A DNA stretch of 64,000 nucleotides from a bacterium (GTDB lineage Bacteria > Patescibacteriota > Microgenomatia > UBA1400 > UBA12108). The notes under the pieces are model-generated. The model saw only the letters and a program-made list of their open reading frames with translations. It was not told the origin of the DNA and made no database searches. Below are positions 16,311-48,008 of the stretch, piece by piece. Numbering within the stretch: the first letter of the stretch is position 1; every line of letters starts with the position of its first letter. The translations under genes and the position numbers were made by a program. Location: the NCBI GenBank assembly GCA_043827085.1, contig JBDRPO010000016.1, positions 42,752 through 106,751 of the forward strand, in the 5' to 3' direction.

Positions 16311-16397
16311 AAGGTCTGACCTGCTAAGGAAATGCTGAGCTTGCCGAAGCATGTTTAGTCGACTTCAAAATGCAATCAGGAGACCAGGTCAGACCTT
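16311..16397. repeat. REP/MITE-like palindromic element copy A (13-bp TIRs AAGGTCTGACCTG / CAGGTCAGACCTT, conserved core CTAAGGA...GATGTTTAGTCGACTTCAAAAT)
   Basis: Compared by eye with the copies at 20165, 43721, 42249 and 33019. The internal variable hairpin is ATGCT...AGCAT. Confidence 0.8.
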
Positions 16398-16485
16398 ATT
16401 GAATTTAATCTAGTGAATTTAATCTAGTTGACATTCGGGTAGTGTTTGGTCATAGTAGATATAGAATAAGTTTATAGGAGGGTTT

Positions 16486-17541
16486 ATGGCTAAAGCATCA
16501 GACAAAGCAGAGAAAACAGTCGGCGCCAAAAGTAATCTTCAATCCGAGAAACTTCAGGCAATCAAAGTAGCCATGGAACAGATCGACAAGCAATTTGGCA
16601 CCGGCTCTATCATGAAACTTGGTACCTCTCACCACATGGATATTGACTCTATTCCCACTTCAGCCATGGCGCTCGACTTGGCGCTAGGTATCGGTGGCTT
16701 CCCCCGCGGTCGGATCACCGAGATCTACGGCCCCGAGGCCTCAGGCAAGACTACCGTCTGTTTGCATGTCATCGCCGAAGCCCAAAAGTGTGGTGGTACC
16801 GCGGCCTTTATCGACGCCGAGCACGCGCTTGATCCAGCCCGCGCCAAAGCCGTGGGAGTAAATCTTGACGAACTCCTGATTTCCCAGCCCGATACCGGCG
16901 AGCAAGCACTTGAAATTGCTGAGACTCTCATTCGCTCCGGCGCAGTCGATGTGATTGTGGTTGATTCTGTCGCGGCTCTCGTCCCTAAAGCCGAGATCGA
17001 AGGGGAGATGGGCGACGCCGTCATGGGTATGCAAGCCCGCCTCATGAGCCAAGCCCTCAGGAAGCTCACCGGCGCGATCAGTAAAAGCAATACCGTTATG
17101 ATCTTTACCAACCAGCTCCGCATGAAGATCGGAGTGATGTTTGGCAATCCAGAGACAACCGCCGGCGGACAAGCCCTTAAGTTTTATTCTTCTGTTCGGA
17201 TCGACATGCGCAAAATTGGCAACATTACCGAAGGAGAAATTATCATTGGTTCTCATCATCGCGCCAAAATTGTGAAAAACAAAGTTGCTCCTCCCTTTAA
17301 AATTGCCGAGTTTGACATTATGACCACAGGCGGTATCTCCAAGTCCGGTGGTGTGTTGGATGTTGCCGTCGAGCAGGGGATAATTGAGAAATCTGGCTCC
17401 TTCTTCAAATATGCGGGGGAGATGCTCGCGCAAGGCAGGGAAGCCACCAAACAAATTCTCGAAGAAAAACCCGAACTCATGAAAAAAATCGAGAGAGAAA
17501 TCTGGGACAAAATCAAAGCCGTCGAAAAAGCCGCTGCCTAA
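16486..17541 (+). CDS. recA: Recombinase RecA
   Basis: Walker [10 protein letters not shown], plus IDAEHALD and the L1/L2 loops, are canonical RecA. Confidence 0.97.
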
Positions 17542-18162
17542 ATGCCTACAATTACTCGTCTTGTTCAGGGCAAGAAAAACCAGAGTCGTGTAAACCTCTA
17601 TCTCGACGGTCAGTTTGCCTTTGCACTTGGGATTGATGAGGTTGGAAAGCGTGGCCTCAAAAAAGGTCTCGAACTTACAACTGAGCAAGTAAACACTCTT
17701 GTCGCCACCGATGAAGACAATAAAGTTTACGCCAAAATCCTTAACTTTCTCTCTTTTCGTCCCCGTACTATTAAAGAAGTCCGCGATCGACTTATTCGTT
17801 ACGATGTCAAAGATCCTATCAAGCAATATGCTCTCATCAATCGATTGAAAAATAGAGGATATCTCGATGACCTCGCGTTTGCCCGCTGGTTTATTGAGTC
17901 TAGAAATACCCACAAGCTCCGTTCTCCCCGCATGCTCGAGCTTGAGCTCAAACGTCACGGGGTAGGAGATGACACCATCTCCCAAGTTATCTCAACTGTC
18001 ACCGCTCCCGAGGATACTATTTATCGTCTCTTGAGCAAGAAGTTAGGGACTAAACATACTCTAACCACTCAAGAAAGACAAAAAATCTACGCTTATTTCT
18101 CTCGTCAGGGTTTTGTTTGGGAAAAAATTCGGGAGGTTGTCAAAAAGTGGGAATCAGAGTAA
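17542..18162 (+). CDS. recX: RecA regulator RecX
   Basis: A ~200-aa three-helical-repeat protein immediately downstream of recA, with RecX-like sequence. Confidence 0.75.
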   Translation: MPTITRLVQGKKNQSRVNLYLDGQFAFALGIDEVGKRGLKKGLELTTEQVNTLVATDEDNKVYAKILNFLSFRPRTIKEVRDRLIRYDVKDPIKQYALINRLKNRGYLDDLAFARWFIESRNTHKLRSPRMLELELKRHGVGDDTISQVISTVTAPEDTIYRLLSKKLGTKHTLTTQERQKIYAYFSRQGFVWEKIREVVKKWESE

Positions 18163-18313
18163 AATAAAGCTACCTTTTAAGAAAGATATTACAAAAAACA
18201 TAAAAACATGACCAAACATATTTTCTCGACTTTCGTGAGTGAGGCTATCTAAGCCAGTTTTGTTGTTTTGGTAAGAATTTTCTTGACAGGGATAACAGTA
18301 TTTTAGGAGCTTT

Positions 18314-19816
18314 ATGAGTATATTACTTAAGTCACTGCTAGCTACTTTTCAACAATCAGGGAAACCCAAACCCCCTCAAGTCAAAGCCAAGCCAGCTGTA
18401 GCCAAAAAAGATGCGGTCAAAACAGTCAGTCCAGAACTTATCAAACAAGCCGAGAACACAGCAAAAGAGGTCCTGGCTTTTGCCCGCGAGGAAGCCGACA
18501 AAATCAGGGAAACCGCCAAAGTTGAGATGCGCGAACTCCAGAACACTCTGCGCACCCAAGAAGAGAAACTCCGGAAAACCGAAGATGACTTGGGTCACAA
18601 AAACTCTCAAATCTCTGCTCGTCTCGCCGAAATAGAAGAGACCAAACAAGCGATTCAAGAACTACAAGTAAAACAAGTCGAAAAACTCGAAAAAATTGGC
18701 GGACTCACCAAAGAAAAAGCCAAAGACATCCTCCTTGAAGCCGTCGACAAAAAGCTCGCTCGTGACGTGGCCGAGCGCATCCGCGCTGCCGAAGACGAGA
18801 TTAAAGAGACGGTCGACAACAAAGCTCGCGATCTCTTGATCGATGCCATGTATCACGGTTCAACAGAGTATGTTGCCGAGTTTACGATCTCCACCGTCAA
18901 GATAGCCGACGACGACGTCAAAGGTCGCATCATTGGTAAAGAGGGTAGAAACATCCGCACCTTTGAAAAAGTCACTGGAGTTGATATCGACATGGATGAG
19001 ACTCCCGGGGAAGTTCGCTTGTCCTGTTACGACGGGGTGCGTCGCGAGATTGCCCGCGTCGCCCTCGAGCGCCTCATTAAAGACGGTCGTATCCAACCAA
19101 CCCGCATCGAAGAATATGTCACCAAAGCCCGTCACGACATCGAAAAAATCATGTATGAGGAGGGTAAGAAACTCTGTCACATGGTTGGAGCCTACAACCT
19201 TCCCCAGGAACTGATCGCCATGTTGGGTAGGTTCAAATTCCGTTCCAGTTACGGCCAAAATATGCTGGCCCATACCCTAGAAGAAACCAGGATCGGCATG
19301 AATCTAGCCGCCGAAGTCCGCGCCAATGTTGATGTGGTGAAGCTTGGTTGTCTCTTCCATGATATCGGTAAAATAATTACCGAAGAAGAGGGTAGTCACG
19401 TCGAGCTCGGTGTAAAACTGCTCAAAAAACACAACATGCCACAAGCTGTCGTGAACTGCGTAGCCGAACACCACGAAGACATGGAGTTCTCGAGTAAAGA
19501 ATCTATCCTCGTCTACATCGCCGACGCAATCTCTGGCTCCAGGCCTGGCGCTCGCTACGAAAATGTCCAGGAATACACAACTAGGCTCAAAGCCATCGAA
19601 GACATCGCCATGAGTAAGTCTGGCGTGACCGAAGCTTACGCCATCTCGGCAGGACGTGAAGTGCGCGTGATGGTTGATCCAGGCAAGGCCAACGATGATG
19701 AAGCTGTGAGGCTAGCTTCTGATATCCGTGACGAGATCAAAGAAAAACTGACCTATCCAGGTACAGTCACTGTTACCGTCATTCGAGAAACTCGCGCCCA
19801 ACAAGTAGCTAAATAG
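18314..19816 (+). CDS. rny: Ribonuclease Y
   Basis: It has an N-terminal TM helix, a coiled coil, a KH domain (GRIIGKEGRNIRTFEKVTGVD) and an HD domain (LFHDIGK...AEHHE). Confidence 0.9.
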   Translation: MSILLKSLLATFQQSGKPKPPQVKAKPAVAKKDAVKTVSPELIKQAENTAKEVLAFAREEADKIRETAKVEMRELQNTLRTQEEKLRKTEDDLGHKNSQISARLAEIEETKQAIQELQVKQVEKLEKIGGLTKEKAKDILLEAVDKKLARDVAERIRAAEDEIKETVDNKARDLLIDAMYHGSTEYVAEFTISTVKIADDDVKGRIIGKEGRNIRTFEKVTGVDIDMDETPGEVRLSCYDGVRREIARVALERLIKDGRIQPTRIEEYVTKARHDIEKIMYEEGKKLCHMVGAYNLPQELIAMLGRFKFRSSYGQNMLAHTLEETRIGMNLAAEVRANVDVVKLGCLFHDIGKIITEEEGSHVELGVKLLKKHNMPQAVVNCVAEHHEDMEFSSKESILVYIADAISGSRPGARYENVQEYTTRLKAIEDIAMSKSGVTEAYAISAGREVRVMVDPGKANDDEAVRLASDIRDEIKEKLTYPGTVTVTVIRETRAQQVAK

Positions 19817-19877
19817 TCAAATTATTATTAATAATGTACTATGTACTAAGTACTATGTACACAACCGAAGGGAGTAT

Positions 19878-20153
19878 ATGAAGAAGTCCGATTACTACGA
19901 TATTATTGCCAAGTCCGCCCACATGACTAAAAAAACCGCCAAAGACGCGATCGACACGTTTTTGGGTGAAGTGGTAAAAACTTTGAAAAAGGGTGACAAA
20001 GTAGTTTTATCTGGTGTCGGGACACTTTCTATCGGCAAAGTCGGACCCAAAGATGTCGTCCCTTTCGGCAAAGCTGATAAACGTGTCACAGTGAAGTCTC
20101 ACCACGTCGTGAATTTCAAAGCCTCCAAGCCCCTCCGCAAGATAATCTGGTAG
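19878..20153 (+). CDS. hup: HU/IHF-family DNA-binding protein
   Basis: A 91-aa basic protein with HU-like arm motifs (KKGDKVVLSGVGTLSIGKVGPK). Confidence 0.75.
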   Translation: MKKSDYYDIIAKSAHMTKKTAKDAIDTFLGEVVKTLKKGDKVVLSGVGTLSIGKVGPKDVVPFGKADKRVTVKSHHVVNFKASKPLRKIIW

Positions 20154-20164
20154 TCCCGCTCCCA

Positions 20165-20241
20165 AAGGTCTGACCTGCTAAGGAGATCCCGACAAACAGT
20201 CGAGATGTTTAGTCGAACGCAGTGAGACCAGGTCAGACCTT
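20165..20241. repeat. REP/MITE-like palindromic element copy B
   Basis: AAGGTCTGACCTGCTAAGGAGATCC...GATGTTTAGTCGAAC...CAGGTCAGACCTT. It lies between hup and the ABC ATPase gene. Confidence 0.8.
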
Positions 20242-20258
20242 AATGTATACTGAAGCCT

Positions 20259-21185
20259 ATGACTCATACAATCCTTGTAGAAAATTTATCAAAAGTATAT
20301 CAAGTCCAAAAAAAGCGTCCTGGCTTAGCAGGGTCTCTCAAAGACCTCTTTTCTCCAAAGTATGAGGACAAACCAGCCGTTAATGGAGTCTCCTTTGTCA
20401 TCGACGAAGGGGAGCTAGTCGGTTTCATCGGCCCCAACGGCGCGGGCAAGACGACTACCCTCAAAATGCTCTCCGGCCTCCTCCATCCCACCTCGGGGGA
20501 GGTGCGCGTCCTTGGGTTTGATCCGTGGGGGAGAGATTATGAGTTCCTCAAATCCATCTCGCTTGTCATGGGTCAGAAAAACCAGTTATGGTGGGACTTG
20601 CCCGCCATCGAATCATTTAACCTCGCCCGCGACATCTACGATATCCCGAACGTTGATTACAAAAAGACACTTCATTCACTTGTTGAAATGCTCGGTATTG
20701 GCGATGTACTAAATGTCCAGGTTAGGAAACTCTCCCTTGGCCAAAGGATGAAAGCAGAGCTCGTTGCCGCCCTCATTCACTCTCCCAAAGTACTCTTTTT
20801 GGACGAGCCCACGATCGGTCTCGACGTCGTGATGCAGCAAGCCGTTCGTAGTTTTATCAAAGACTACAACGCTCATCATGATGGCGCGATTATTTTGACC
20901 AGTCACTACATGGAGGACGTGAAAGAACTCTGTAAACGCATCATCATTATCAACGAAGGAACCATCCTCTACGACGGACTCTTGGGGGACGTCATCACCA
21001 AGTTTAGCAAACACAAAATCATCGAGATCATCCTCGTAAGTGGTGAGATAAAAACTCAAAAAGTCCTTCGCGCCAAAGTCCCCGAAGTCGCTGCTCAAAT
21101 CCTAAAAACTATGCCGGTTATGGATATTAACATCAAAGAAATCACGATCGAAGAAGTAATCAGGTCAGTCTTTACCGCCAAATGA
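20259..21185 (+). CDS. ABC transporter ATP-binding protein (ABC-2 type exporter)
   Basis: Walker A GPNGAGKTTTLKML, the LSLGQRMK signature and Walker B LFLDEPT are present. Confidence 0.9.
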   Translation: MTHTILVENLSKVYQVQKKRPGLAGSLKDLFSPKYEDKPAVNGVSFVIDEGELVGFIGPNGAGKTTTLKMLSGLLHPTSGEVRVLGFDPWGRDYEFLKSISLVMGQKNQLWWDLPAIESFNLARDIYDIPNVDYKKTLHSLVEMLGIGDVLNVQVRKLSLGQRMKAELVAALIHSPKVLFLDEPTIGLDVVMQQAVRSFIKDYNAHHDGAIILTSHYMEDVKELCKRIIIINEGTILYDGLLGDVITKFSKHKIIEIILVSGEIKTQKVLRAKVPEVAAQILKTMPVMDINIKEITIEEVIRSVFTAK

Positions 21186-21970
21186 AAAAATATCTCTCAA
21201 TTTTCTCTATTACTTTTCAGGAAATTTTTACCTATCGCTTAAACATGTTTATGTGGCGTGTTCGCCAGATTTTCGTTTTTCTCATTCCTTTCTTTATTTG
21301 GCGAGCAGTCCTCGGAGGTGGTGGCGACATCTATGGGTATTCTTTTGCCGGGATCATGACCTACCTTTTTGGTACCACCATTTTGCGCTCACTAGTCATG
21401 GGTTCTCGCACGGTCGATTTAGGTTGGATGATCAATAGTGGTAACTTAACGATTCCCCTAATGCGCCCCATTGGTATTTTTCGCTTTCTGATGACCCGTG
21501 ATCTCGCCGACAAATTGTTTAATCTGAGTTTTATCTTCCTCGAAGTGCCCCTCATTCTTTTTCTTTTTCACCCTCCCGTTTTTCTGCAAGTCAACCCCCT
21601 AAATCTCGTTTTAACAATTTGTAGTGTCGTTCTAGCTATTCTTCTGTACTTTTTCATCAACATTATCTTCGGCGCGATTGGTTTTTGGTCACGTGACGTG
21701 TGGGCACCCAGATTTCTCCTTATGGTAATCATGGAGTTTGCGACCGGCGCCATGTTCCCCCTCGACATGCTCTCTTCTTTTTGGCAAAAAATTATGCTTG
21801 CCACTCCCTTTCCCTATCTTCTCTTTGTCCCACTTAAAATATATCTCGGGGCAGACTCCAACCTTATCCTCCACTTAAGTATTCAATTAATCTGGACTAT
21901 CGTCTTGTTCCTCCTCACTAAATCTATTTGGCAGAAAGGACTCCTTAGATATGAGGCAGAGGGACGTTAG
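21182..21970 (+). CDS. ABC-2 family transporter permease
   Basis: A six-TM hydrophobic protein coupled by overlap to the ATPase. Confidence 0.65.
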   Translation: MKKYLSIFSITFQEIFTYRLNMFMWRVRQIFVFLIPFFIWRAVLGGGGDIYGYSFAGIMTYLFGTTILRSLVMGSRTVDLGWMINSGNLTIPLMRPIGIFRFLMTRDLADKLFNLSFIFLEVPLILFLFHPPVFLQVNPLNLVLTICSVVLAILLYFFINIIFGAIGFWSRDVWAPRFLLMVIMEFATGAMFPLDMLSSFWQKIMLATPFPYLLFVPLKIYLGADSNLILHLSIQLIWTIVLFLLTKSIWQKGLLRYEAEGR

Positions 21971-22760: not shown

Positions 22761-22778
22761 ACGTGTTACAATTAAGGG

Positions 22779-24474: not shown

Positions 24475-24476
24475 GT

Positions 24477-26301: not shown

Positions 26302-26303
26302 AT

Positions 26304-26996: not shown

Positions 26997-26999
26997 GCC

Positions 27000-28578: not shown

Positions 28579-28584
28579 GGGTCT

Positions 28585-29163: not shown

Positions 29164-29185
29164 ACAACTATGCTATCATAATCTC

Positions 29186-29656: not shown

Positions 29657-29659
29657 AAT

Positions 29660-30859: not shown

Positions 30860-30892
30860 GCAAAGTCGTACACCTATTGTGTTCGAGTAGTT

Positions 30893-31668: not shown

Positions 31669-31699
31669 TTAAGATTATCCTGCTGTATACTATTCAAAT

Positions 31700-33124
31700 A
31701 TGCGTCTCCGACGAAATATCTTTCTTATCATTATCCTTGTAGCAACAGCCCTCGTAATCGACGCTCCCAAAAACTACCCCGTAAACTTCAATCTCTTTGG
31801 TAATAGCATCTCCTTTACGCTCTCGAGCCCCACCATCAACATCCGCAATTTTAAGCGTGATCTCAACATCAAACAGGGACTAGATCTGCAAGGTGGCACT
31901 GAAGTCACCCTCGCGCTCGATATGAAAGATCTGGCAGCTGCGGATCATCTGGACGCGCTCGACTCAGCCAAAGAAATCATTACCCGCCGAGTTGATCTCT
32001 ACGGCGTTGCCGAGCCAACCATTAAAACCGTGGTGAGTGACGACACCTACCGTATCCTCGTCGCTCTCCCCGGTGTCAGTAGTCCCGACGAAGCTTTGAG
32101 TTTGATTGGACAGACCGCCTCCCTCGACTTCCGCGAGCTCCCAGTTGCAACTGACGCGGCAACCTACGCCGACTTTCAGCTTACCGGCTTAACTGGCAAA
32201 GATTTAGAAAAGTCATCGGTTGGCTTTAGCTCCCAAAACGGCAAACCCGAGATCAATCTCCAGTTTACAGAGGAGGGGGGGAAGAAATTCGGCGAAATCA
32301 CAGGGCGTAACGTCGGCAAACCCCTCGCCATCTTTCTCGACGGCATACCCCTGACTACCCCTACCGTCCAACAAGCGATCACCGACGGCCGCGCCGTCAT
32401 TAACGGTATCTATACAGTTGAAGAAGCCAAGAACATGGTAATCACCCTCAATGCCGGTGCTCTGCCTGTCCCGATCGAAATCATCCAGCAACAAAATATT
32501 GCCCCGACCTTAGGGGCATCAAGCGTCCAAAGTAGTCTCAAAGCCGGAGCAGTCGGCTTGGGACTCGTCGCACTCTTTATGATCATGAACTACGGCGCCC
32601 TTGGCGCGATCGCCGACATTGGTCTCGTGATTTACGGTCTCCTGACGCTCGCAGTCTACAAATTTGTCCAGATTACGATCACCCTTCCCGGCCTCGCCGG
32701 CTTTATCCTCTCGATCGGCATGGCTGTCGATAGCAATATCCTCGTTTTTGAACGCATGAAAGAAGAAAGCCGCAAAGGGAATGATTGGCTTGGGAGCATG
32801 GAGCTCGGATTTGGCAAAGCTTGGGACTCCATCAAAGATGCCAACGTCGCGACCTTGATCACAACCTTCGTCCTTTTCAATCCTTTTGACTGGACTTTCC
32901 TCAATAGCTCCGGCATGGTCCGTGGCTTCGCCCTCACTCTTTTTCTTGGCATCGTTATCTCGCTCTTCACCGGAATATTTGTTACTCGCAACCTGCTCCG
33001 AGCTCTGACGGCCTCCAAAGGGTCTGACCCTAAAGGACGATCCCACCCCGCAGACTCAAAGGCGGGAAGGTCAGACCCTAAAGGTATTTTCAACGAAAGG
33101 ACAGACCTCCATGGAATCAAATAA
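31700..33124 (+). CDS. secD: Protein translocase subunit SecD (C-terminal tail encoded by an embedded repeat copy)
   Basis: The P1 periplasmic domain plus 6 TM are present (ILSIGMAVDSNILVFERMKEE). The last ~35 codons run through repeat copy C. Confidence 0.88.
   Translation: MRLRRNIFLIIILVATALVIDAPKNYPVNFNLFGNSISFTLSSPTINIRNFKRDLNIKQGLDLQGGTEVTLALDMKDLAAADHLDALDSAKEIITRRVDLYGVAEPTIKTVVSDDTYRILVALPGVSSPDEALSLIGQTASLDFRELPVATDAATYADFQLTGLTGKDLEKSSVGFSSQNGKPEINLQFTEEGGKKFGEITGRNVGKPLAIFLDGIPLTTPTVQQAITDGRAVINGIYTVEEAKNMVITLNAGALPVPIEIIQQQNIAPTLGASSVQSSLKAGAVGLGLVALFMIMNYGALGAIADIGLVIYGLLTLAVYKFVQITITLPGLAGFILSIGMAVDSNILVFERMKEESRKGNDWLGSMELGFGKAWDSIKDANVATLITTFVLFNPFDWTFLNSSGMVRGFALTLFLGIVISLFTGIFVTRNLLRALTASKGSDPKGRSHPADSKAGRSDPKGIFNERTDLHGIK
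33019..33084. repeat. REP/MITE-like element copy C (short subtype) embedded in the secD 3' coding end
   Basis: GGGTCTGACCCTAAAGGAC...GGAAGGTCAGACCCTAAAGG is near-identical to copy D at 42249. Confidence 0.7.
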
Positions 33125-33995
33125 ACTTCGCATTCTCCAACCCATGAAGTACTGGTGGCTCTACTTTACGATCTCTCTCTCCGTGATTATCCCAGGGACT
33201 TACTCCCTCGTCACTTACGGCCTCAAGCCCTCCATCGATTTCACTGGTGGTTCGACCATCGTCTGGACTACTTCAGTTGAAGAAAGTACACTGCGCGATT
33301 TGGCGAAGACTGAGAGTATCGACATCCGCGAAATGGGGAAAGTTAGTGGTGTCTGGACTATCACAACTTCACCTCTGGGCAAAGATCTTTATCAAACCTA
33401 CAAAACCAAAGTGGCCGATATAGGGAGTGTTGTTGAACAACAGTTCAACACCGTAGGTCCTGCCTTGGGGAGTGAACTCATCAACAAAACTATTTATGCG
33501 GTCGTCCTTGCCGCTTCACTCATTTTGTTCTATGTCGCCTACCGTTTCCAAAACATCAAGTTTGGGGTCTCAGCGATCCTTGCCATGCTTCACGACTCAC
33601 TGGTTCTCTTAGGGGTCTTCTCTCTTCTCGGGCATTTTATGGGGATCGAGGTAGACACGCTCTACGTCACAGCTCTCTTGACCATCCTCAGTTTCTCCGT
33701 CCACGATACAATTGTTGTCTACGACCGTATCCGCGAACTCAAGAAAAAATATGGCTATCTTGATTTCAAAGAAATCGTCAACCGCGCCGTTGTGGAAACC
33801 ATGGGCAGGAGTATCAACAATAGTCTCACAATTATCTTCATGCTTCTAGCTATGTATATGCTAGGCGGTGAAACCACACGCTGGTTTATCTTTGCGCTCC
33901 TTGTGGGCACCGTCTCCGGCACCTACAGCTCCACCTTTACCGCTGCCCCGATCCTTATCGTCTGGGAAAAACTAGCTAAAAAACGCCTTGGGTAG
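33111..33995 (+). CDS. secF: Protein translocase subunit SecF
   Basis: SecF sequence with 6 TM (TLYVTALLTILSFSVHDTIVVYDRIRE). Confidence 0.9.
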   Translation: MESNKLRILQPMKYWWLYFTISLSVIIPGTYSLVTYGLKPSIDFTGGSTIVWTTSVEESTLRDLAKTESIDIREMGKVSGVWTITTSPLGKDLYQTYKTKVADIGSVVEQQFNTVGPALGSELINKTIYAVVLAASLILFYVAYRFQNIKFGVSAILAMLHDSLVLLGVFSLLGHFMGIEVDTLYVTALLTILSFSVHDTIVVYDRIRELKKKYGYLDFKEIVNRAVVETMGRSINNSLTIIFMLLAMYMLGGETTRWFIFALLVGTVSGTYSSTFTAAPILIVWEKLAKKRLG

Positions 33996-34290
33996 GCATA
34001 AGCCAGATTCTGTTTTTAAGACGATCATTTCTCTAATGCCCGCAAACTTTAGGACTCGCCCGCCTGCAACGCTTGCGCGTAGCAATGCGGGCAGGGGAGT
34101 GCACCCATCATCCAATTCGTCGGTTGCAGCAGGGAGGATTGCCCGTTTCACCCGAACTAAATCGGTTCGTCACTGTTGCTCTAAACTAGCGGTTACCCGT
34201 CATAGCTTACGCTACGCACCTCGCACTCTGCTGTCTGGACTTTCCTGACTCGGCTTTCACCTCGCCCGATCATCCACCTACCCAAGGCAA
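33984..34290 (-). ncRNA. rnpB: RNase P RNA (bacterial type A-like, compact ~305 nt)
   Basis: On the minus strand: a P1 stem GCCUUGGGUAGG / CCUACCCAAGGC, the P4 5' strand AGGAAAGUCCAGA with 3' ACAGAAUCUGGCUUAU, GGGUAACCGC, GCAACAGUGACGAACCG and GGGUGAAACGGG. These match the conserved RNase P motifs. Confidence 0.7.
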
Positions 34291-34323
34291 GAAGATTATA
34301 ACATTTAAGGGTATAATTTCCCT

Positions 34324-36534: not shown

Positions 36535-36589
36535 AAAGCTAGTCTACCACAGGGGAAGTGATGTATCATGTAGTTATATTTAGGATATA

Positions 36590-36613
36590 TTCCGTTGAAT
36601 CGATAGATCGGAA
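36590..36613 (+). repeat. 24-bp leader repeat TTCCGTTGAATCGATAGATCGGAA (copy 1, immediately upstream of the TrpR-like gene)
   Basis: Identical to 37073-37096, seen directly. Confidence 0.9.
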
Positions 36614-36619
36614 CAAATT

Positions 36620-37072
36620 ATGACACAAGTATCTAAACATAAACTCCAGCCAGAAATGACGACATTAATTTATGGTGAATTTTGTGGCTTTCTTTCCAAA
36701 ATCGATTCAAATAGTGGTGTAAGTCAATTTCTCGACGATTTTCTCACTTCCACGGAGAAAATAATGCTAAGTAAAAGATTTATGATCATGGTTTTCCTCA
36801 TGCGAGGCCATTCTGTCGAACATATTAAAAACACCCTACATGTTAGCAATTCAGCAGTCATGAGTGTGAATAGTTGGTTTAAAAACGCCAGCTCCACGAC
36901 TAAACAATCTCTAATTCGACTTAATCAAGAGAAAAATTTGGAAAAGCTTTTTGATCAAGTAGAGTCAATACTCGATAAGCTACCACCTGGAAAATATCGC
37001 GACTGGCACAAAGTGGGCAAAGAAAAATTTGCTCGTCTGAAAACTCGTCAATTAATAGATCGATTACGTTAA
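36620..37072 (+). CDS. TrpR/YerC-YecD-family HTH DNA-binding protein
   Basis: LTSTEKIMLSKRF...GHSVEHIKNTLHVSNSAV is a Trp-repressor-like HTH. Confidence 0.5.
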   Translation: MTQVSKHKLQPEMTTLIYGEFCGFLSKIDSNSGVSQFLDDFLTSTEKIMLSKRFMIMVFLMRGHSVEHIKNTLHVSNSAVMSVNSWFKNASSTTKQSLIRLNQEKNLEKLFDQVESILDKLPPGKYRDWHKVGKEKFARLKTRQLIDRLR

Positions 37073-37096
37073 TTCCGTTGAATCGATAGATCGGAA
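37073..37096 (+). repeat. 24-bp leader repeat TTCCGTTGAATCGATAGATCGGAA (copy 2, overlapping the recJ start codon)
   Basis: Identical to 36590-36613. Confidence 0.9.
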
Positions 37097-38769
37097 TGAA
37101 ATATATGACTGACATAAAAGTTAAAACAAAAGTATATGTCGATGCCTCAGCCGAGGAGATTTTTCAAGCAATCCTTGAAAGTAGGGGATATAAAACCACA
37201 AGCGAGCAGGAAGCATTCTTAAATCCTTCCGCGCCCACTCTCGATTTACTCCTTGGGCAGTCCGGTCTCAAAAAAACTACTCTCAAAAAAGCCAAAGCGA
37301 TTCTCGACTCTCATTTGAAAAGTAACCATGATATCTGCGTTTTCGGTGACTACGACGCTGACGGCGTGACCGCCACGGCTATTATGTGGCAAGCCGTCTC
37401 GGCTTACGCCAAAGTCCAAGAATCAAAGTCGCACGTCCTCCCCTTTATCCCCGATCGTCATCGCCACGGCTATGGCTTAGGTGACAAAGCAGTGGCCGAA
37501 GTTATTGGTGGTGAAGCCTTTCGCACCACTCAATTTCAAGGTTTTGCCCCCAAACTCATCGTGACGGTTGATACCGGCATTGTGGCGCACGTTGGCATCA
37601 AGTCTTTTGTAAATGCCAAAATTGATGTGATCGTCACTGATCACCACCAGCCCGAAGAGAAGCTCCCTCCCGCTAGCTGTATTGTTTATACGCTCGCGAC
37701 CAGTGGTGCCGGCTTGGCTTGGATCTTTTCGATGTATCTCCTCGGGAGTCCCGCAGGGAAACTTCTCGATTTAGCCACTATCGGGGTGATTGCCGACATG
37801 ATGCCCCTGACCGGCCTCAACCGCTCGATAATCGCGCGTGGCTTGGACGCTCTCTCTCACACCTTGAGACCCGGCCTCCTCGCTATGAAAAAAGCCATGG
37901 GGATAGGGGAAAAGGATCTCTCCACTTATGACATCAGCTTTGGTATCGCCCCGCGTCTCAATGCCGCGGGTCGGATCTACAATCCGCTCGATGCTCTCCG
38001 GCTCATGTGCACGAGCGACAAAAATCTGGCAACTGAACTAGCCGGGAAAATCGAATCACACAATCGCGATCGCCAAGAATATACTGACCATGCCCTCCGC
38101 CTCGCGGCTAGTTACACTGCCGCTCATAAAATAATCATCGTCTCGGGTGACTACCATGAAGGTGTGATTGGGCTAGTGGCCGGCAAGCTCACTGAAATAT
38201 ATCACCGTCCCGCCATCGTGATGAGTGACAACGGCGAAGTAGTAAAAGGCTCAGCCCGCTCTGTATCGGGTATAAATATCACCGAGCTTTTACGCTCACT
38301 AAAAACTCCATTTCTTGGCTTAGGTGGTCACGAGCAGGCGGCTGGATTTAACTTGGCTCGCAACAAAGTTACCGGCTTTACCAAAGAACTTAAAACTCTC
38401 GCCGATCGAGAGATCAAGGACACTCTACTCATCAAAAGTGAGTCCGCTGATCTCACGCTCCCCCTTAAATCTACTTCCCTCAAGTTAGCCAAGATGTTAT
38501 CTACTCTTGAGCCAATCGGCATCGGCAACCCCAAACCCAAATTTATTCTTTATGACTTAAATGTGCTGGAAGACCGCGAGCTTGGGGCTGGTGGCAAGCA
38601 CCACAAACTCACAGTGGAGCAAGGTGGGGCGACCCGTGAACTCCTTATGTTTAATACCGTTCATTCCCATCCTCTCGATCATATAAGCACACTAATTTGT
38701 ACACTCGACGTCAATGTTTGGCGAGACCGCGAATCGCTTCAACTCATAGGTAGTTATGTGGAAAATTAA
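37096..38769 (+). CDS. recJ: Single-stranded-DNA-specific exonuclease RecJ
   Basis: DHH motifs (VFGDYDADGVTA; VTVDTG; DHH at ...VIVTDHHQP) plus a DHHA1 domain. Confidence 0.9.
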   Translation: MKYMTDIKVKTKVYVDASAEEIFQAILESRGYKTTSEQEAFLNPSAPTLDLLLGQSGLKKTTLKKAKAILDSHLKSNHDICVFGDYDADGVTATAIMWQAVSAYAKVQESKSHVLPFIPDRHRHGYGLGDKAVAEVIGGEAFRTTQFQGFAPKLIVTVDTGIVAHVGIKSFVNAKIDVIVTDHHQPEEKLPPASCIVYTLATSGAGLAWIFSMYLLGSPAGKLLDLATIGVIADMMPLTGLNRSIIARGLDALSHTLRPGLLAMKKAMGIGEKDLSTYDISFGIAPRLNAAGRIYNPLDALRLMCTSDKNLATELAGKIESHNRDRQEYTDHALRLAASYTAAHKIIIVSGDYHEGVIGLVAGKLTEIYHRPAIVMSDNGEVVKGSARSVSGINITELLRSLKTPFLGLGGHEQAAGFNLARNKVTGFTKELKTLADREIKDTLLIKSESADLTLPLKSTSLKLAKMLSTLEPIGIGNPKPKFILYDLNVLEDRELGAGGKHHKLTVEQGGATRELLMFNTVHSHPLDHISTLICTLDVNVWRDRESLQLIGSYVEN

Positions 38770-39718
38770 ACTCTTTCACGAATTCATTGCTCGCTTCCAG
38801 AAAATGGATCTCCCGCGCCAGCTATTAGCTGTAAGCTGTATGCTGTTAGCTTTTCTTTATCCCGGCCACAACTCTCTCCAAACTATTGTTCTAACTCCTG
38901 GCGAAGTTCGCGCCTACTCACTCGCCACACCGATACTTTCCCTTTATCCCAAAAATGATGGTACCAAAGCTCCTGGTGTTTCCGCTCGCGCCGTCATCGT
39001 CCAAGACGCAGTAGGGAAAACCATCATGTACGAGAAAAATCCGGATACTTATCTTCTCCCCGCCTCGATTACCAAAGTTATGACCGCCCTCGTCGCACTC
39101 GACAACTGGCCTGACTTAAATACCGTGATTACTGTCAAGAATGAAGATCGCGCGATAGGTCAAACCATCGAACTTCAGAAAGGTGAGCAAATCACTCTCA
39201 TTAACATCCTCTACGGTCTCCTTGTTCACTCCGGCAACGACGCGGCGCTTGCGATCGCCGACAACTATCCCGGCGGCTACTCTGATTTTGTCGCTGCCAT
39301 GAACGTCAAAGCCAAGGAGCTTCATCTAGACCACACTACCTACAAAAACCCGTCAGGTGTTGAGCAGTACGGTCACGTCACGACCGCTCGCGACCTTGCC
39401 GTTCTAGCCTCAACTGCACTGCAAAATCAAATCATTGCGAGTGTTGTTGATACCAAAAAAATCACCGTGACCGATGTTTCAGGCGAAATCGTTCACGAAC
39501 TAGTCACAACCAACGAGCTCTTGGGGGAAATTCACGGACTCAAAGGACTCAAGACCGGCTGGACCACCAATGCCGGCGAGTGCCTAGTCAGCTACATCGA
39601 CCGTGATGGCAAAAGGATTATCGTCGTAGTCCTAGGCTCGCTTGATCGCTTTGGTGACACTCGCCTCCTCGTCGACTGGACCTACTCCCACCACGACTGG
39701 ATTACCCCTGTACTCTAA
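38756..39718 (+). CDS. D-alanyl-D-alanine carboxypeptidase (S11 / PBP5-like)
   Basis: SxxK motif PASITKVMTA, SGN (HSGND) and KTG (KTGWT). Confidence 0.8.
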   Translation: MWKIKLFHEFIARFQKMDLPRQLLAVSCMLLAFLYPGHNSLQTIVLTPGEVRAYSLATPILSLYPKNDGTKAPGVSARAVIVQDAVGKTIMYEKNPDTYLLPASITKVMTALVALDNWPDLNTVITVKNEDRAIGQTIELQKGEQITLINILYGLLVHSGNDAALAIADNYPGGYSDFVAAMNVKAKELHLDHTTYKNPSGVEQYGHVTTARDLAVLASTALQNQIIASVVDTKKITVTDVSGEIVHELVTTNELLGEIHGLKGLKTGWTTNAGECLVSYIDRDGKRIIVVVLGSLDRFGDTRLLVDWTYSHHDWITPVL

Positions 39719-39732
39719 GTTATAATCACCAT

Positions 39733-41133
39733 ATGCTACGCACGCTCATCAAGGAAACAATCAAAAAAATCGGCGAGACAGTCACCCTAAAAGGGTGGAT
39801 AAGTACAAAAAGAGATCATGGGAAACTTACATTTATTGACCTCCGCGACCGGACCGGAACCATCCAGTGTGTTGGCTATCAAAAAATGGGGGAGTTAACT
39901 ACAGAATCTGTAATTGAAGTGACAGGAATTCTGAAAGAACGAAACGATAAGAGTATCAATCCTGAGTTACCTTTGGGAACCATAGAAATAGATGTTCAAG
40001 AGTATGTGGTGGCAGGAAAAGCAACCGAACTACCTATCCACGTTAAAGAAGCCGGTGGTAATGACGTGTCAGAAGATATTCGCCTACGCTATCGCTACCT
40101 CGATTTACGTCGTGATCACATGCAAAAAATTATGCGACTCAGGTCTATCTATTCGCATACTTTACGTCAAGCCTTTATAGATCGAGATTTTGTAGAAGTA
40201 GAAACACCCATTCTTTCGAAAGCGACCATGGAAGGTGCACGCGACTTTCTCGTTCCCTCCCGTTTTCAGCACGGTAAATTCTATGCATTACCCCAAAGTC
40301 CTCAACAATATAAACAACTTCTCATGGTAGCCGGGGTAGATCGTTATTTCCAATTCGCGAGGTGTTTCAGAGATGAAGATTTGCGTGCAGATCGCGGGTT
40401 TGAGTTTACGCAGGTTGATGTAGAGATGAGCTTTTTGACGAGTGACGAAATTCGAGGGACAATGGAAGATGTTGTTAAGCAAGCAGTAAAAGCCGTTGGT
40501 GGCAAACTCAAAGATGAAGTCTTCCCAGTATATTCGTTTGCTGATGTTATCAAACAATTTGGCACCGATAAATTTGATCTCCGTACAGAATCAGAAAAAA
40601 ATGATGGAACATTAGCATTTGCCTGGGTTACTCGGTTTCCATTCTTTAAAAAAATTGACAAAGGGGATGTCGCCGAACTCCGGGACGGCAAGAGTGGGTG
40701 GACCTTTACCCACAATCCATTCGGAGCTCCAATTCCTGAACACACACAGTGGCATCTAAAAGGTGAGCACATTGAAGAAATTATCGCCGATCAATACGAC
40801 TTAGTATGCAATGGGTACGAAGTAGGTGGGGGTAGTATCAGAGCTCACAAACCAGAACTTCTGGCCGCTACTTATCGGACCATGGGTTATACCGAAGCAG
40901 AAACTCAAGCTAGTATTGGTCATATGCTTGAGGCGTTCTCGTATGGTGTGCCACCTCACGGTGGAATTGCCTTGGGACTTGATCGTCAAATAATGTTATT
41001 GGCGAACGAAAATTCACTCAAAGAAGCAATTGCTTTCCCCATGACATCAACAGGGCATACTGCAGTCATGGATGGTCCGAATATTGCCACGGACGAACAG
41101 CTGAAAGAATTAGGGTTAAAAATAAATAAGTAA
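39733..41133 (+). CDS. aspS: Aspartate--tRNA ligase, compact form lacking the GAD insertion domain
   Basis: Class IIb motifs are present (FRDEDLRADRGFEFTQVDVEMSF; GGGSIRAH; GLDRQIMLL). At 466 aa with no GAD insert, it could alternatively be AsnRS-like, but the anticodon-binding N-terminus looks more AspRS-like. Confidence 0.7.
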   Translation: MLRTLIKETIKKIGETVTLKGWISTKRDHGKLTFIDLRDRTGTIQCVGYQKMGELTTESVIEVTGILKERNDKSINPELPLGTIEIDVQEYVVAGKATELPIHVKEAGGNDVSEDIRLRYRYLDLRRDHMQKIMRLRSIYSHTLRQAFIDRDFVEVETPILSKATMEGARDFLVPSRFQHGKFYALPQSPQQYKQLLMVAGVDRYFQFARCFRDEDLRADRGFEFTQVDVEMSFLTSDEIRGTMEDVVKQAVKAVGGKLKDEVFPVYSFADVIKQFGTDKFDLRTESEKNDGTLAFAWVTRFPFFKKIDKGDVAELRDGKSGWTFTHNPFGAPIPEHTQWHLKGEHIEEIIADQYDLVCNGYEVGGGSIRAHKPELLAATYRTMGYTEAETQASIGHMLEAFSYGVPPHGGIALGLDRQIMLLANENSLKEAIAFPMTSTGHTAVMDGPNIATDEQLKELGLKINK

Positions 41134-41136
41134 AAT

Positions 41137-42189
41137 TTATTCAGTCCACGCGTCACTTACCGCCGGTACATAAGCTACAAAATCAGGGTCACCCGTAAAC
41201 ACATACACCGGCTGCATAAATTGTTGAGGCATATCCGCGTCGTAATACTGGAGCGTGATGTCGCGAATTGTAACGTTTGTCGTATTCGGCTTCACCCCCG
41301 CGATAAACCCAGTTCCTTTTTGCAATCTCTGCCACGCTTCGGCGACGCCGATCAGGGGGTACACCGCCGAGCGGTCAAGGTCAACCGGGTAGTAGTTGTA
41401 ATCCAAGTTCACAAACTGTCGCTCATCCTCTCGCTGCAGGGCCAATATCCCGGTAATTAGACCGCTATCTGAGTGTGGTGCGACGACGTCCACCCCGTCT
41501 ACCGGCGCCCGGTACAGATTAACTCGTACAAAATGAGCTTGGGATAGTGAAGCTGCCGCGACAATCTGGTCTTTATCCCCCTTTAGATACTGAACCGTCG
41601 ATTTGCCTTCTTTAATATCGTCAGGGAGCAGCTCAACCCGTCCAAGCAAGTTGTACAACCTATCGAGAGCCTGCGGATCAGTATAGTAAATGGTTGGGAT
41701 TGTATAACTAGGATCCAATTGCCACTTTTTATCGAGGACAAACGAACCGGTAATGATATTTATAGTCAGGGATGAAGGGATTGGGTCAGTAGAGTTCCAC
41801 CGGTACTCCGTTTCCGACAATTTCGTCGGTTGCTCAATAAAGTCTAGCTTGGTCGCAACGGCAGAAGCTGCGTCGTACGCAAGTAGATTGGCTTTCTTGA
41901 TCGGCATAAAGAAAACTTTGAATTGATTAGGTAATCGGGTCGGTAGTCCTCCAGTTGGAGTCTCGAGTTTATACGTGTATGACACCGATTCCACCAACTG
42001 CGGGAACTGGATCTTGGGGATCTTACCAAACAACACGTCTGGCGGGGGAGGGGGGGCGGGATGAAGCTTCTTCCAGTATGCGATCGACGCCGTGAGTACA
42101 ATCCGTCCAACCATGAGAAATACAAGGGTAAGCCCTCCATACTTAATCGCCTTCCGGGCCACAACCGCCGTCTCTCCAAGTGTTGCCAT
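41137..42189 (-). CDS. Hypothetical membrane-anchored protein (N-terminal TM, Pro-rich linker, large extracytoplasmic domain)
   Basis: No recognisable motif. It may be operonic with the convergent terminator region. Confidence 0.45.
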   Translation of the reverse strand: MATLGETAVVARKAIKYGGLTLVFLMVGRIVLTASIAYWKKLHPAPPPPPDVLFGKIPKIQFPQLVESVSYTYKLETPTGGLPTRLPNQFKVFFMPIKKANLLAYDAASAVATKLDFIEQPTKLSETEYRWNSTDPIPSSLTINIITGSFVLDKKWQLDPSYTIPTIYYTDPQALDRLYNLLGRVELLPDDIKEGKSTVQYLKGDKDQIVAAASLSQAHFVRVNLYRAPVDGVDVVAPHSDSGLITGILALQREDERQFVNLDYNYYPVDLDRSAVYPLIGVAEAWQRLQKGTGFIAGVKPNTTNVTIRDITLQYYDADMPQQFMQPVYVFTGDPDFVAYVPAVSDAWTE

Positions 42190-42248
42190 AAGTTTAGTAT
42201 ACGGTATTCAGACTGCAATTCTCAAACAAGTAAACAACGTGCCGTCAG

Positions 42249-42314
42249 AGGGTCTGACCTTAAAGGACTCAAGTGCAAAAAGCACCTGAAAAGACCCCAA
42301 AAAGGTCAGACCCT
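42249..42314. repeat. REP/MITE-like element copy D (short subtype) upstream of gltX
   Basis: AGGGTCTGACCTTAAAGGAC...AAAAGGTCAGACCCTAA. Confidence 0.7.
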
Positions 42315-42332
42315 AATGTATAATCCAACCAT

Positions 42333-43727
42333 ATGGTAGTACGCACTCGTATCGCCCCTAGTCCGACTGGTATTGCCCACTTAGGCACAGCCTATACCGC
42401 CATGCGCAATCTCGCAATTGCCAGGCAAAACAATGGGAAATTTATTATTCGCATCGAAGACACCGATCGTGAGCGCTACATCGAGGGCGCAGTTGATGTC
42501 ATTTTCGACGCACTAAAATGGTTAGGTCTTACCTATGACGAAGGCCCTTACACTCAGTCAGAGCGGCTCGCGATCTACCAAAAGCACGCCAAGCAGCTAG
42601 TCGAGAAAGGGCAGGCCTACTACTGTTTCTGCACCAAAGAGCGCCTCGACGAGGTGAAGCAAGCCGCGATCGCCAAAAAAGAACTCCCCCGCTACGACCG
42701 CCACTGTCGCTCCTTAGATCAGAAAGTTGCAGGGAAGCGCGCAGAAACTGAACCTCACGTGATTCGTCTCAAAGTCCCCGAGTCAGGAGTGACGATTTGT
42801 CAGGATGTAGTAAGAGGTCCCATCGAGTTCCAAAACTCTGGGATCGACGATCAGGTGATCCTCAAATCCGATGGCTACCCCACCTACCACCTCGGCGTGG
42901 TCGTGGATGATCACTTAATGGGTATCACCCATGTGATCCGTGGTGAGGAATGGCTCTCCAGTTCCCCGAAGCATATCTTGCTCTACCAGGCCTTCGGCTG
43001 GGAGCTGCCCGTCTTTGCCCACTTGCCAATAATTAGAAATAAAGATCATAGCAAGATGAGTAAAAGGAAAAACGACGTTTCTATCCTTTCTCACCGCGAC
43101 AAAGGTTATCTCCCCGAAGCCATCAATAACTTTATAGCTCTTATGGGTTGGTCCCATCCAGAGAAAAAAGAAATCTTCACGCTCGACGAGTTCTTGCGTC
43201 TCTTCACACTCAACAGAATTACTCTGACCGCTCCTGTTTATGATCTCGAAAAACTCAACTGGATCAACGGCCAATACATCCGCTCTATGTCAGACTCTGA
43301 GCTCTTAGAACGTCTCAAACCCTTCTTGTCATCTGATTGCTCTCCTACGCTCGCAACCCAGATCCTTCCTCTCATCAAAGAGCGGCTAGTCACTCTCAAA
43401 GATTTCGAGTCTCTGACCGACTTCTTCTACCGCGATGTCAAAGTTGATCCAACCCTCCTTACCAAAAAATCTACGATAGAAGAAGTAAAGTCCCAGCTTA
43501 CTGCAACCAATACTTCTCTTTCTTCCATTGAAGACAAAGATTGGACAAGTGAAAACATTGAACAAAAAGTTAGGTCATTAGCTGAAACTAATGGTTGGAA
43601 GCCTGGTCAATACTTTATGCTGCTCCGCGTGGCCGTGACCGGCAAGACTGCCACTCCACCTCTTTTTGAAACCATGACCGTCCTCGGTCGTGAAAAGTGC
43701 CTTTCTCGCTTGTCCGCCATGGTCTGA
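42333..43727 (+). CDS. gltX: Glutamate--tRNA ligase
   Basis: HIGH variant (PSPTGIAHLGT) and KMSKR are present. Confidence 0.93.
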   Translation: MVVRTRIAPSPTGIAHLGTAYTAMRNLAIARQNNGKFIIRIEDTDRERYIEGAVDVIFDALKWLGLTYDEGPYTQSERLAIYQKHAKQLVEKGQAYYCFCTKERLDEVKQAAIAKKELPRYDRHCRSLDQKVAGKRAETEPHVIRLKVPESGVTICQDVVRGPIEFQNSGIDDQVILKSDGYPTYHLGVVVDDHLMGITHVIRGEEWLSSSPKHILLYQAFGWELPVFAHLPIIRNKDHSKMSKRKNDVSILSHRDKGYLPEAINNFIALMGWSHPEKKEIFTLDEFLRLFTLNRITLTAPVYDLEKLNWINGQYIRSMSDSELLERLKPFLSSDCSPTLATQILPLIKERLVTLKDFESLTDFFYRDVKVDPTLLTKKSTIEEVKSQLTATNTSLSSIEDKDWTSENIEQKVRSLAETNGWKPGQYFMLLRVAVTGKTATPPLFETMTVLGREKCLSRLSAMV

Positions 43728-43805
43728 CCTGCTAAGGAGATCCTGGCCAGCGGCCAAGATGTTTAGTCGACTTCAAAATACAATTGGAAGATCAGGTCAG
43801 ACCCT
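43721..43805. repeat. REP/MITE-like element copy E lying between convergent gltX and proS and overlapping both stop codons
   Basis: GGTCTGACCTGCTAAGGAGATCC-[TGGCCAGCGGCCA hairpin]-GATGTTTAGTCGACTTCAAAATACAAT...CAGGTCAGACCCT. Confidence 0.8.
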
Positions 43806-47896: not shown

Positions 47897-48008
47897 ACTA
47901 GTGCAACCCGAGAGGCCGTGACGCCTCAAACAGACTAATGAGTCCTACTAATTTGTCGAAATCTCCTCAAACTCCTGCAACCGCGAAAATCATCGGAAAC
48001 TTGAGGAA

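Follow-up and report, generated by a model that had tools for sequence, protein, structure and literature searches.

Rickettsia palindromic elements (RPEs) form, according to the summary in PMC10969869 (citing Ogata et al. 2000, 2002), several families of repeats with about half of the copies lying in frame in unrelated genes, where they encode peptides compatible with the fold of the host protein. Here we describe a family of palindromic elements that is present in five copies (A to E) in a 64-kb stretch of DNA (the window hereafter; contig JBDRPO010000016.1, assembly GCA_043827085.1) from a bacterium of the candidate phyla radiation (CPR, or Patescibacteria). The family is restricted to a CPR lineage, in whose genomes it is dispersed in several types; its copies keep their pairing, carry a strand-specific tail, differ in occupancy between orthologous sites, reside in frame in genes and supply stop codons from their arms. 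We infer that these elements are selfish and were once mobile, and we put at roughly 0.75 the probability that the family is RPE-like or MITE-like (MITE, a transposable element of the miniature inverted-repeat kind) selfish, at least formerly mobile, palindromic DNA of a Microgenomates-like CPR lineage, ~60-95 nt long and non-coding-derived. In-frame palindromic selfish DNA is a kind already known; the family and its host lineage are new.

By a comparison of features, the family does functionally what characterizes RPEs, and we file it as an analogue and not as a member. Like RPEs, as far as PMC10969869 describes them, it consists of short palindromic repeats in a reduced genome, with several coexisting families and no known transposase of its own, and a large share of copies is in frame in unrelated housekeeping genes, where each family has its own conserved and seemingly fold-compatible peptide. 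The hosts differ (CPR here, Alphaproteobacteria for RPEs), as do the sizes (~60-95 nt here versus ~100-150 nt for RPEs), and the CPR types have one sharply defined arm of 11-13 bp, an asymmetric 3' tail and arm-borne stop codons in the other frames. The host phyla being unrelated, kinship with RPEs at the sequence level is not to be expected.

A preliminary description of the window, made from its sequence, had reported five REP/MITE-like copies, and all five are where it placed them:

16311..16402, + strand: copy A, type T1; arms 16311-16323 and 16385-16397, tail TTATTGA to 16402; covariance model 101.8 bits
20165..20246, + strand: copy B, type T1 with the third hairpin shortened; covariance model 84.5 bits
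33019..33084, + strand: copy C, type T2, inside the 3' end of the secD open reading frame (ORF; 31700-33124); covariance model 78.6 bits
42232..42319 (core 42249-42314), + strand: copy D, type T3; tail CTAATGT; covariance model 42.9 bits
43719..43810, + strand: copy E, type T1, between the convergent genes gltX and proS; covariance model 97 bits

All five copies share one orientation, and the density in the window is ~1 copy per 13 kb. The window contains 11 instances of the arm core GGTCTGACC, complements with an altered centre included, versus 0.25 ± 0.48 expected, and 0 of 100 shuffles reached 11. Ten of these sites are the paired arms of A to E; the eleventh, at 15485, belongs to the conserved stretch of rplM that encodes LGRL and has nothing to do with the elements. 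Covariance models built for T1 and T2 recovered exactly A to E from the window with zero degenerate extras, and the folding of each copy scored z -3.2 to -7.7 relative to its own shuffles on either strand. Repeat finding also returned the T1 blocks CTAAGGA(A/G)AT and ATGTTTAGTCGA(CTTCAAAAT) (as families D1 and D4), and the variable hairpins are those reported before. Terminal arms of 13 bp had been ascribed to all copies; A, B and D do pair over 13 bp, but C pairs over 12 bp and E over 11 bp. The single short subtype proposed for C and D is in fact two distinct subtypes, T2 and T3. Each copy has the conserved 3' tail past its right arm, and D has in addition a 5' leader, AAACAACGTGCCGTCAGA (42232-42249), that is also found on copies in other genomes.

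The surroundings of the copies were read from Pfam assignments and our own ORF map. Copy A lies between rpsI (stop 16294) and recA (start 16486), and copy B between hup (stop 20153) and an ABC ATPase gene (start 20259), with its tail TTAATGTATACT overlapping a -10-like TATACT box 7 nt before the ATG. Copy C is within the last 35 codons of the secD ORF, where it would be translated in frame as KGSDPKGRSHPADSKAGRSDPKG and form a new C-terminus: the Pfam SecD domain ends at residue 436, copy C starts at about residue 440, and the start of secF (33111) overlaps the secD ORF as extended through the copy. Copy D is flanked by divergent genes, a hypothetical gene on the minus strand (41137-42189, start 42189) and gltX (start 42333). 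At copy E, the gltX stop is the TGA of the left arm (43725-43727) and the proS stop TAG is the CTA (43804-43806) immediately past the right arm. The preliminary description had placed the copies at gene 3' ends, which is accurate except for D, between divergent genes, and C, within an ORF that reads through it.

Two further observations concern these spacers. A perfect tandem duplication, TGAATTTAATCTAG x2, directly follows the tail of copy A (16400-16427) and ends right before a promoter-like TTGACA-17-CATAGT (16428-16456) upstream of recA. TATACT and TATAAT boxes at 20246-20261 and 42319-42335 precede the ATG start codons of the ABC ATPase gene and gltX, respectively, by only 7-8 nt, and the same arrangement occurs at the gltX site of a related locus that has no element (L096), which suggests leaderless or near-leaderless mRNAs. 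As copies B and D abut these -10-like boxes, any -35 region would fall inside the element.

The lineage of the host can be read from its ribosomal block. In a 13.9-kb Logan contig that is the sole exact match to the window (L001, 99.9% identical), S5 is followed directly by L15 with L30 absent, and this is a CPR pattern. Among the closest syntenic genomes and the closest protein homologues, the labels are Microgenomates, Beckwithbacteria, Woesebacteria or 'uncultured bacterium'. Several loci (L012, L004, L010, L026 and others) are titled 'uncultured Pseudomonadales' and share syntenic proteins with the window at 60-82% identity (ABC ATPase, SecD, others). These third-party metagenome-assembled genomes, several with syntenic genes 70-80% identical to those of the window, are almost certainly mislabelled CPR bins.

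The preliminary description had regarded the copies as dispersed repeats and proposed a count of further copies elsewhere; many were found in related genomes. Scanning one genome per species with the pattern GGTCTGACCY-N35-65-AGGTCAGACCYT gave 94 loci. About 35 of the 94 are other things (a conserved motif in the coding sequence of gyrB, palindromic repeats from Bacillaceae, spirochaetes and further groups, or chance matches), and ~56 loci from ~15-19 CPR genomes hold elements clearly related to the window copies. Genomes with several arm-paired loci include CAJAUT01, JBAQEX01 (Microgenomates), JAZDDW01, CAXCDZ01, DALYDJ01 (Woesebacteria), and CP011210 and JBDRQW01 (Beckwithbacteria). The related-genome data are 8-kb blocks around exact-arm matches, 423 kb altogether, so that copy numbers per genome, like the search for an autonomous partner element, are incomplete. 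We typed 62 copies, orthologous sites included, among which are ~22 independent in-ORF sites. The arm pattern gave 0 matches in viral contigs, so there is no sign there of a phage vector.

Related arm cores recur in other bacteria. Ten Bacillaceae/Paenibacillaceae loci (L013, L022, L041, L043, L046, L062, L078, L079, L087 and L094) have palindromes of 60-83 nt that share this arm core, have runs of A and T on their flanks (AAAAGGGTCTGACCyc...grGGTCAGACCCTTTT) and look like bidirectional terminator-type repeats. Repeat clusters based on GGTC[T/A]GACC also occur in spirochaetes, Verrucomicrobia, Hyphomicrobiaceae and Paceibacterota.

In the CPR elements (57-95 nt), common arms, A[A/G]GGTCTGACC...GGTCAGACC[C/T]T, bound at least four interior types. 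A stem of 11-13 bp forms between the arm A[A/G]GGTCTGACC[Y][K] and its complement, and the interior consists of one or two variable hairpins; these hairpin modules define the types and are shuffled among them. The types and the peptides encoded by their in-gene frame are as follows:

T1, ~83 nt: CTAAGGArAT, a hairpin, ATGTTTAGTCGA, a second hairpin and GAGACC; copies A, B and E of the window; peptide GSDLLRKSWPTAKMFSRLQNTIRRPGQTL
T2, ~57 nt: TTAAAGGAAGTGCCCAACC, then a CCCGC/GCGGG hairpin; copy C of the window; peptide GSDLKGSAQPADSKAGRSDP
T3, ~60 nt: TTAcAGGACTCGAGGC...GCCCAAAAA; copy D of the window; peptide GSDLTGLEAPSSKSSPKRSDP
T4, ~70 nt: found in Beckwithbacteria; peptide RSDLNRNSRLQAEKGSPAGERSDL

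A fifth, AT-rich type is also present. Some T2 variants bear the T1 segment TCAAAATACA..CAGGAG, and the GAGCTTGCCGAAG hairpin can be either the first or the second of the hairpins. Copies often have extra or nested arms; a leader, AACAACGYGCCRTCAGAG, precedes a subset of copies that includes window copy D, and its GTCAGA is a degenerate extra arm. Across the related loci, 124 of 133 arm 9-mers are paired in small elements. We considered DNA uptake sequences and ruled them out, as practically every 9-mer is paired within an element. Tn3-type ends (GGGGTCTGAC..., with 9 nt in common with the arm) were likewise ruled out, since the arm does not exceed 11-13 bp and a duplication of 5 bp is absent.

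All types have in common a strand-specific 3' tail, YTAWWGG(TAC), past the right arm, with A at +3 in 49 of 62 copies, G at +6 in 58 and G at +7 in 49; on the 5' side only A[A/G] is fixed. T1 and T2 read this tail in different frames (…PGQT-LWV and …RSDP-IGT), and since it is nevertheless kept, it is a feature of the nucleic acid. No description of such elements in CPR was found in the literature searched, and looking up the arm sequence there brought to light only operators and primers with no relation to the family. The concatenated T1 and T2 consensus peptides, used as a protein query, gave no candidate with three 5-mers in common, and an exhaustive HMMER search with a 34-aa peptide from copy E gave 0 hits at E<=0.001, the query being too short for 1.8 billion proteins.

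The property that the preliminary description missed is that the elements are compatible with translation and lie in frame inside genes, window copy C included. Within ORFs we found 27 of the 62 typed copies, and in all 27 the ORF runs in the element-forward orientation, which is that of the five window copies; 23 of the 27 use the frame GG|TCT|GAC. Gene calls in the related loci came from our own codon log-odds caller, trained on long ORFs, which reproduces the expected gene map of the window. The GG|TCT|GAC frame is stop-free and hydrophilic in all four types (grand average of hydropathicity (GRAVY) -0.6 to -1.7), and its peptides are rich in Gly, Ser, Asp, Pro, Lys and Arg and conserved within each type. 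A second open frame is absent from T1; T2, T3 and T4 have one apiece, in reverse, which is more hydrophobic (GRAVY +0.12, +0.45 and -0.20) and never used. In the other frames the arms supply stops, namely the TGA in GGTCTGACC and a TAG from the CTA after the right arm. An apparent small ORF in T1 (ATG/ATC...TAG, 8 codons) was ruled out, as it is not kept in other copies.

Some of the 27 copies are N- or C-terminal read-throughs, as is copy C in secD. At the internal sites the host protein is conserved on both flanks in orthologues:

Wzy_C-like membrane protein: four sites, in L032 and L028 (68% identical)
Nucleotidyltransferase-like protein: one site, in L018, L007, L017 and L010
Succinyl-CoA-ligase-like protein: one site, in L004 and L010
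Intein: one site, in L056
ClpC/ClpB-type ATPase, within the Pfam AAA_2 domain: one site, in L033 of Beckwithbacteria

The intein belongs to a 1381-aa ORF (L056 205-4350, minus strand) with an N-terminal MerR/HTH domain and an intein splicing domain, and the T4 copy lies in the intein at residues 861-884. In L017, a T4 copy fuses the nucleotidyltransferase-like gene in frame with the next gene, which is cytidylyltransferase-like. The ClpC insert of 27 aa, PSVLPRSDLNRNSRLQAEKGSPAGERS, is present in the NCBI-annotated Beckwithbacteria proteins P0003 and P0001, and seven aligned homologues (60-86% identity) are without it, leaving a clean 81-nt gap. Structure modelling covered ClpC. Its AlphaFold2 model has a mean predicted local distance difference test score (pLDDT) of 79.5, with the insert (residues 416-446) below 50 and lacking secondary structure and the flanking strand and helix at 82-90. 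Residues 416-446 are the sole internal stretch of at least 20 residues with pLDDT <50, and the insert is thus modelled as a disordered loop with the flanking fold intact.

The preliminary description had also noted that the structure of the repeats is kept while their sequence is not, and the stems do covary across copies. In the T1 alignment 98.8% of the cells are paired, with 24 double-change cells versus 5.9 in shuffles (0 of 500 reached this number), and controls slid along the alignment were 25-46% paired. The T2 alignment is 97.6% paired, with 20 double-change cells versus 6.1 in shuffles (0 of 500). Both the outer stem and the inner hairpins covary. The arm 9-mers are fixed by the search pattern; degenerate copies found by other means show that the arm centre covaries as well, the usual T..A pair being C..G in L052 and A..T in L073.

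Which strand folds better depends on the type. The antisense strand has the advantage in T1 (15 of 23 copies), T3 (8 of 8) and T4 (4 of 4), and the sense strand in T2 (20 of 27). In a comparison of wobble and mismatch asymmetry, C.A mismatches on the + strand agreed with the composition skew of that strand (C>G, A>T). Because the sense strand has no consistent folding advantage as RNA across T1-T4, the fold is a property of the palindrome, and could form equally in either DNA strand.

Orthologous sites differ in occupancy between genomes, in agreement with the empty sites anticipated for a dispersed repeat. The junction between the ABC ATPase and permease genes is empty in the window and in L002, where the two genes overlap (ATGA, TAATG); it is filled by T2 in L012 and by T3 in L061, with a few extra nt on both sides. 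Sites D and E are empty in L096, the closest gltX relative (80% amino acid identity), which has a 23-nt divergent spacer in place of window copy D and its leader. The gltX product of L096 ends in ...LARL*, and that of the window in ...LSRL-SAMV*, stopping in the arm of copy E. A metagenome scan seeded with GltX returned L096 as the sole close relative, without an element. No direct repeats flank the elements when filled and empty sites are compared; the flanks extend the palindrome or form the fixed tail. Downstream of gltX in L096 (2592-2817) is a 225-nt spacer with three GC hairpins (CCCCGCCATGGCGGGG, CCCCGCCAAAGGCGGGG and CCCGCCACGGCGGG) in the style of the variable hairpins of T1 and T2, without arms and without an Rfam match.

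Other sites are filled in several genomes, by the same or by different types. The sites of A, B and C are also occupied in genomes ~73% identical in DNA (L090, L002 and L026), and inner hairpins have been exchanged, the hairpin of window copy A being present at the B site of L002. The nucleotidyltransferase site is occupied by T1 in L018 and by T4 in L017; in L007 it has T2 together with the 3' remnant of a T1, and in L010 a decayed relic. The first Wzy site has T1 in L052, and T2 in both L032 and L028. Since the same sites are held by different types across genomes, the elements are old, turned over in place and nested in one another. Nesting is likewise reported for the pneumococcal BOX/RUP/SPRITE elements (PMC10969869). 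L052 also has short tandem repeats (TTTGAGAAT-type and CTTTACGA-type) beside or replacing elements at the same in-gene sites.

Selection may account for where copies are found. In compact genomes, insertions would be filtered so that copies survive only where they do little harm; the distribution is as observed, and selection is its probable cause. Survivors would be those in the few intergenic spacers or those lying within a gene in the one stop-free orientation and frame, where the peptide may fit in as a loop or linker or become a new C-terminus. If a gene runs into an element in another frame, it would end after a few residues, because the arms supply stop codons, as gltX and proS do at copy E.

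With respect to mobility, the family can be compared with MITEs (Correia/CREE, ERIC and Coxiella QMITE1/2; PMC10969869, PMC5896051). It resembles them in having terminal inverted repeats, small size, no transposase gene, a dispersed distribution and a stable stem-loop, and also in occasional in-frame ORF fusions and in clustering and mutual insertion. The complementary arms (11-13 bp), the length (57-95 nt) and the abundance (5 copies in 64 kb and >60 typed copies in ~15 genomes) are those of a MITE. In contrast to MITEs, the CPR elements show no target-site duplication, have no parent insertion sequence with the same ends in the window or in the 423 kb of related loci, and are GC-neutral rather than AT-rich. 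The orientation of the tail and the compensatory stem point to recognition of a hairpin rather than of terminal inverted repeats in duplex form.

Repetitive extragenic palindromes (REPs) and bacterial interspersed mosaic elements (BIMEs), which are mobilised by REP-associated tyrosine transposases (RAYTs; IS200/IS605-like HUH), share with the family a hairpin with a short conserved asymmetric flank, the lack of target-site duplication, clustered arms and a high copy number in intergenic spacers. However, REPs are single hairpins of 20-40 nt with a 5' GTAG, whereas the CPR elements have 57-95 nt; the flank past their right arm is YTA[T/A/C], and just 8 of the 62 copies have CTAC there, which reads GTAG from the opposite strand. 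REPs are also extragenic by definition, while the CPR elements are often intragenic, and no RAYT (Y1 HUH transposase) gene lies within the window. The attC sites of integrons are of similar size (57-141 nt) and likewise imperfect palindromes with conserved ends and a variable centre, often at gene 3' ends in one orientation. Yet the CPR ends are GGTCTGACC/GGTCAGACC and not RYYYAAC/GTTRRRY, the neighbours are core housekeeping genes and not cassettes, no integrase is present in the window, and copies occur inside ORFs.

We suggest that the elements would have spread as a folded single-strand hairpin recognised by a trans-acting enzyme (HUH/RAYT-like, or another hairpin-specific recombinase) and, alternatively or additionally, by gene conversion between copies via their shared arms. 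Such routes are proposed because of the compensatory stem changes, the lack of target-site duplication, the asymmetric flank, and nesting and replacement at the same sites; classical DDE cut-and-paste fits less well. A more speculative and rather doubtful extension is that the in-gene copies are not merely tolerated, and that a hairpin-specific enzyme re-targets a limited number of fixed 'ports' in CPR genes, element types replacing one another at the same codon position over long periods, with lineage-wide remodelling of proteins. If this were true, it would have given rise to new loops, new C-termini (SecD, GltX) and gene fusions (nucleotidyltransferase to cytidylyltransferase, L017). In a bolder form of this idea, some copies would be skipped or excised at the RNA level.

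Several observations weigh against the reading of the family as selfish, formerly mobile DNA. Pfam assignments gave no transposase, RAYT or integrase gene in the window, and no long element bounded by the same arms occurs in the 423 kb of related loci. Target-site duplications were not seen, although this is a weak negative, as old copies can lose them. No two near-identical genomes that differ by a single copy, which would be the mark of mobility at present, were found. Several sites are shared by genomes only ~70% identical, with the element better conserved than its flanks, for which a host function could also be responsible. Intergenic copies are co-oriented with the upstream gene in 25 cases and not in 9; transcription, replication strand or shared ancestry could cause this bias. 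Finally, that the inserts are translated is deduced from their open frames, and it was the ClpC insert that was compared with public annotation, the other gene calls in related loci being our own.

One alternative is an RNA element acting on the sense strand, which would terminate transcription independently of factors, stabilise 3' ends or be a site of RNase processing at the borders of operons. The preliminary description had entertained an RNA-level role of this kind (3'-UTR or terminator structures) alongside that of a mobile element. All five window copies are co-oriented with + strand genes and four of the five follow a gene end, the intergenic bias elsewhere is in the same direction, and the folds are very stable with covarying stems. 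However, no T tract follows any of the five window copies and a terminator scan called none of them; Rfam covariance models, a check that had been proposed at the outset, gave no match overlapping the elements at the gathering threshold or even at E<=1; and the 27 of 62 copies within ORFs include some in conserved domains. Copy D is between divergent genes, and the antisense strand folds better in T1, T3 and T4. Although on average 73% of the coding bases of a locus are on the element-forward strand, the copies in L059, L074, L084 and L085 are clear exceptions, antisense to essentially all genes of their locus. We therefore consider an RNA element unlikely, and the REP/MITE-like reading is the part of the preliminary description that stands, given the further copies, the empty sites, the covarying stems and the lack of any Rfam family. 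A k-turn or ribozyme at the T1 junction was also ruled out, for want of Rfam support. With regard to strands, the deposited contig has the strong T1 hits (L002-L095) on its minus strand in 17 of 20 loci, though contig orientation should be arbitrary; this may be chance, or an assembler or orientation convention correlated with gene strand.

It is less probable still, to the point of being very unlikely, that the arms are protein-binding sites in duplex DNA, i.e. paired sites for a regulator or nucleoid protein with the dyad GGTC-N-GACC, like operators of the GntR/FadR family. Each arm is a near-perfect 9-bp dyad, the same 9-mer appears in papers on PdhR/LldR operators, and several copies adjoin -10-like boxes. 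Against this, the arm centres covary so as to keep pairing within the strand (T..A, C..G, A..T) and covariation extends to pairs outside the dyad, it is the structure and not the sequence of the interior hairpins that is conserved, and many copies lie deep in ORFs, far from promoters.

We give hardly any credence to the idea that in-gene copies are untranslated, either excised from the mRNA with the long stem joining the exon ends or, with equally little credence, bypassed by the ribosome with GTC-TGA at the hairpin foot as take-off and the right-arm GTC as landing site (compare T4 gene 60 and the 'byp' elements of yeast mitochondria): frame 2 does read G GTC TGA CC in the left arm and G GTC AGA CC in the right, the stems are very stable and the T2 arms are 48 nt apart, resembling the T4 gene 60 gap of 50 nt, but every in-ORF copy uses a frame open throughout with the host frame continuing behind it, which would be needless if it were removed, no gene split by an element was seen, and genes end at the arm TGA where the orthologue ends too (gltX, L096) or the next ORF has its own start.

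The window contains other features of interest. Between secF and an EamA transporter gene (33984-34285, minus strand), the model of bacterial class A RNase P RNA gives a match below threshold (76.3 bits versus a gathering score of 100, E 2.5e-21), which spans the full model in ~300 nt and looks like a reduced CPR-type RNase P RNA missed by the Rfam cut-off. A 33-nt direct repeat, ATTCCGTTGAATCGATAGATCGGAA..., 91% identical between its copies and partly palindromic, brackets a small Trp-repressor-like ORF (36620-37072) just upstream of recJ; the repeats (36589-36621 and 37072-37104) may be an operator pair. The region 48000-54000 on the minus strand follows tRNA-Gln (47824-47896), has a G+C content of 0.39-0.42 versus ~0.48 elsewhere, and encodes a metallophosphoesterase, a 599-aa protein with an ADP-ribosylglycohydrolase domain, an FhuF-like protein and a protein with a VTC domain; this region may have been acquired as an island.

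CPR bacteria have tiny, gene-dense genomes that are usually described as poor in mobile DNA. In a manner compatible with translation, the family described here enters essential genes of these organisms (those of ClpC and SecD, and tRNA synthetase genes at their ends), and it accounts for unusual insertions, extended C-termini and seeming gene fusions in the annotation of CPR proteins. The arm and tail together are a sequence marker for a sublineage of Microgenomates, and a hairpin with an asymmetric tail and no target-site duplication is a concrete substrate with which to look for the mobilising enzyme.

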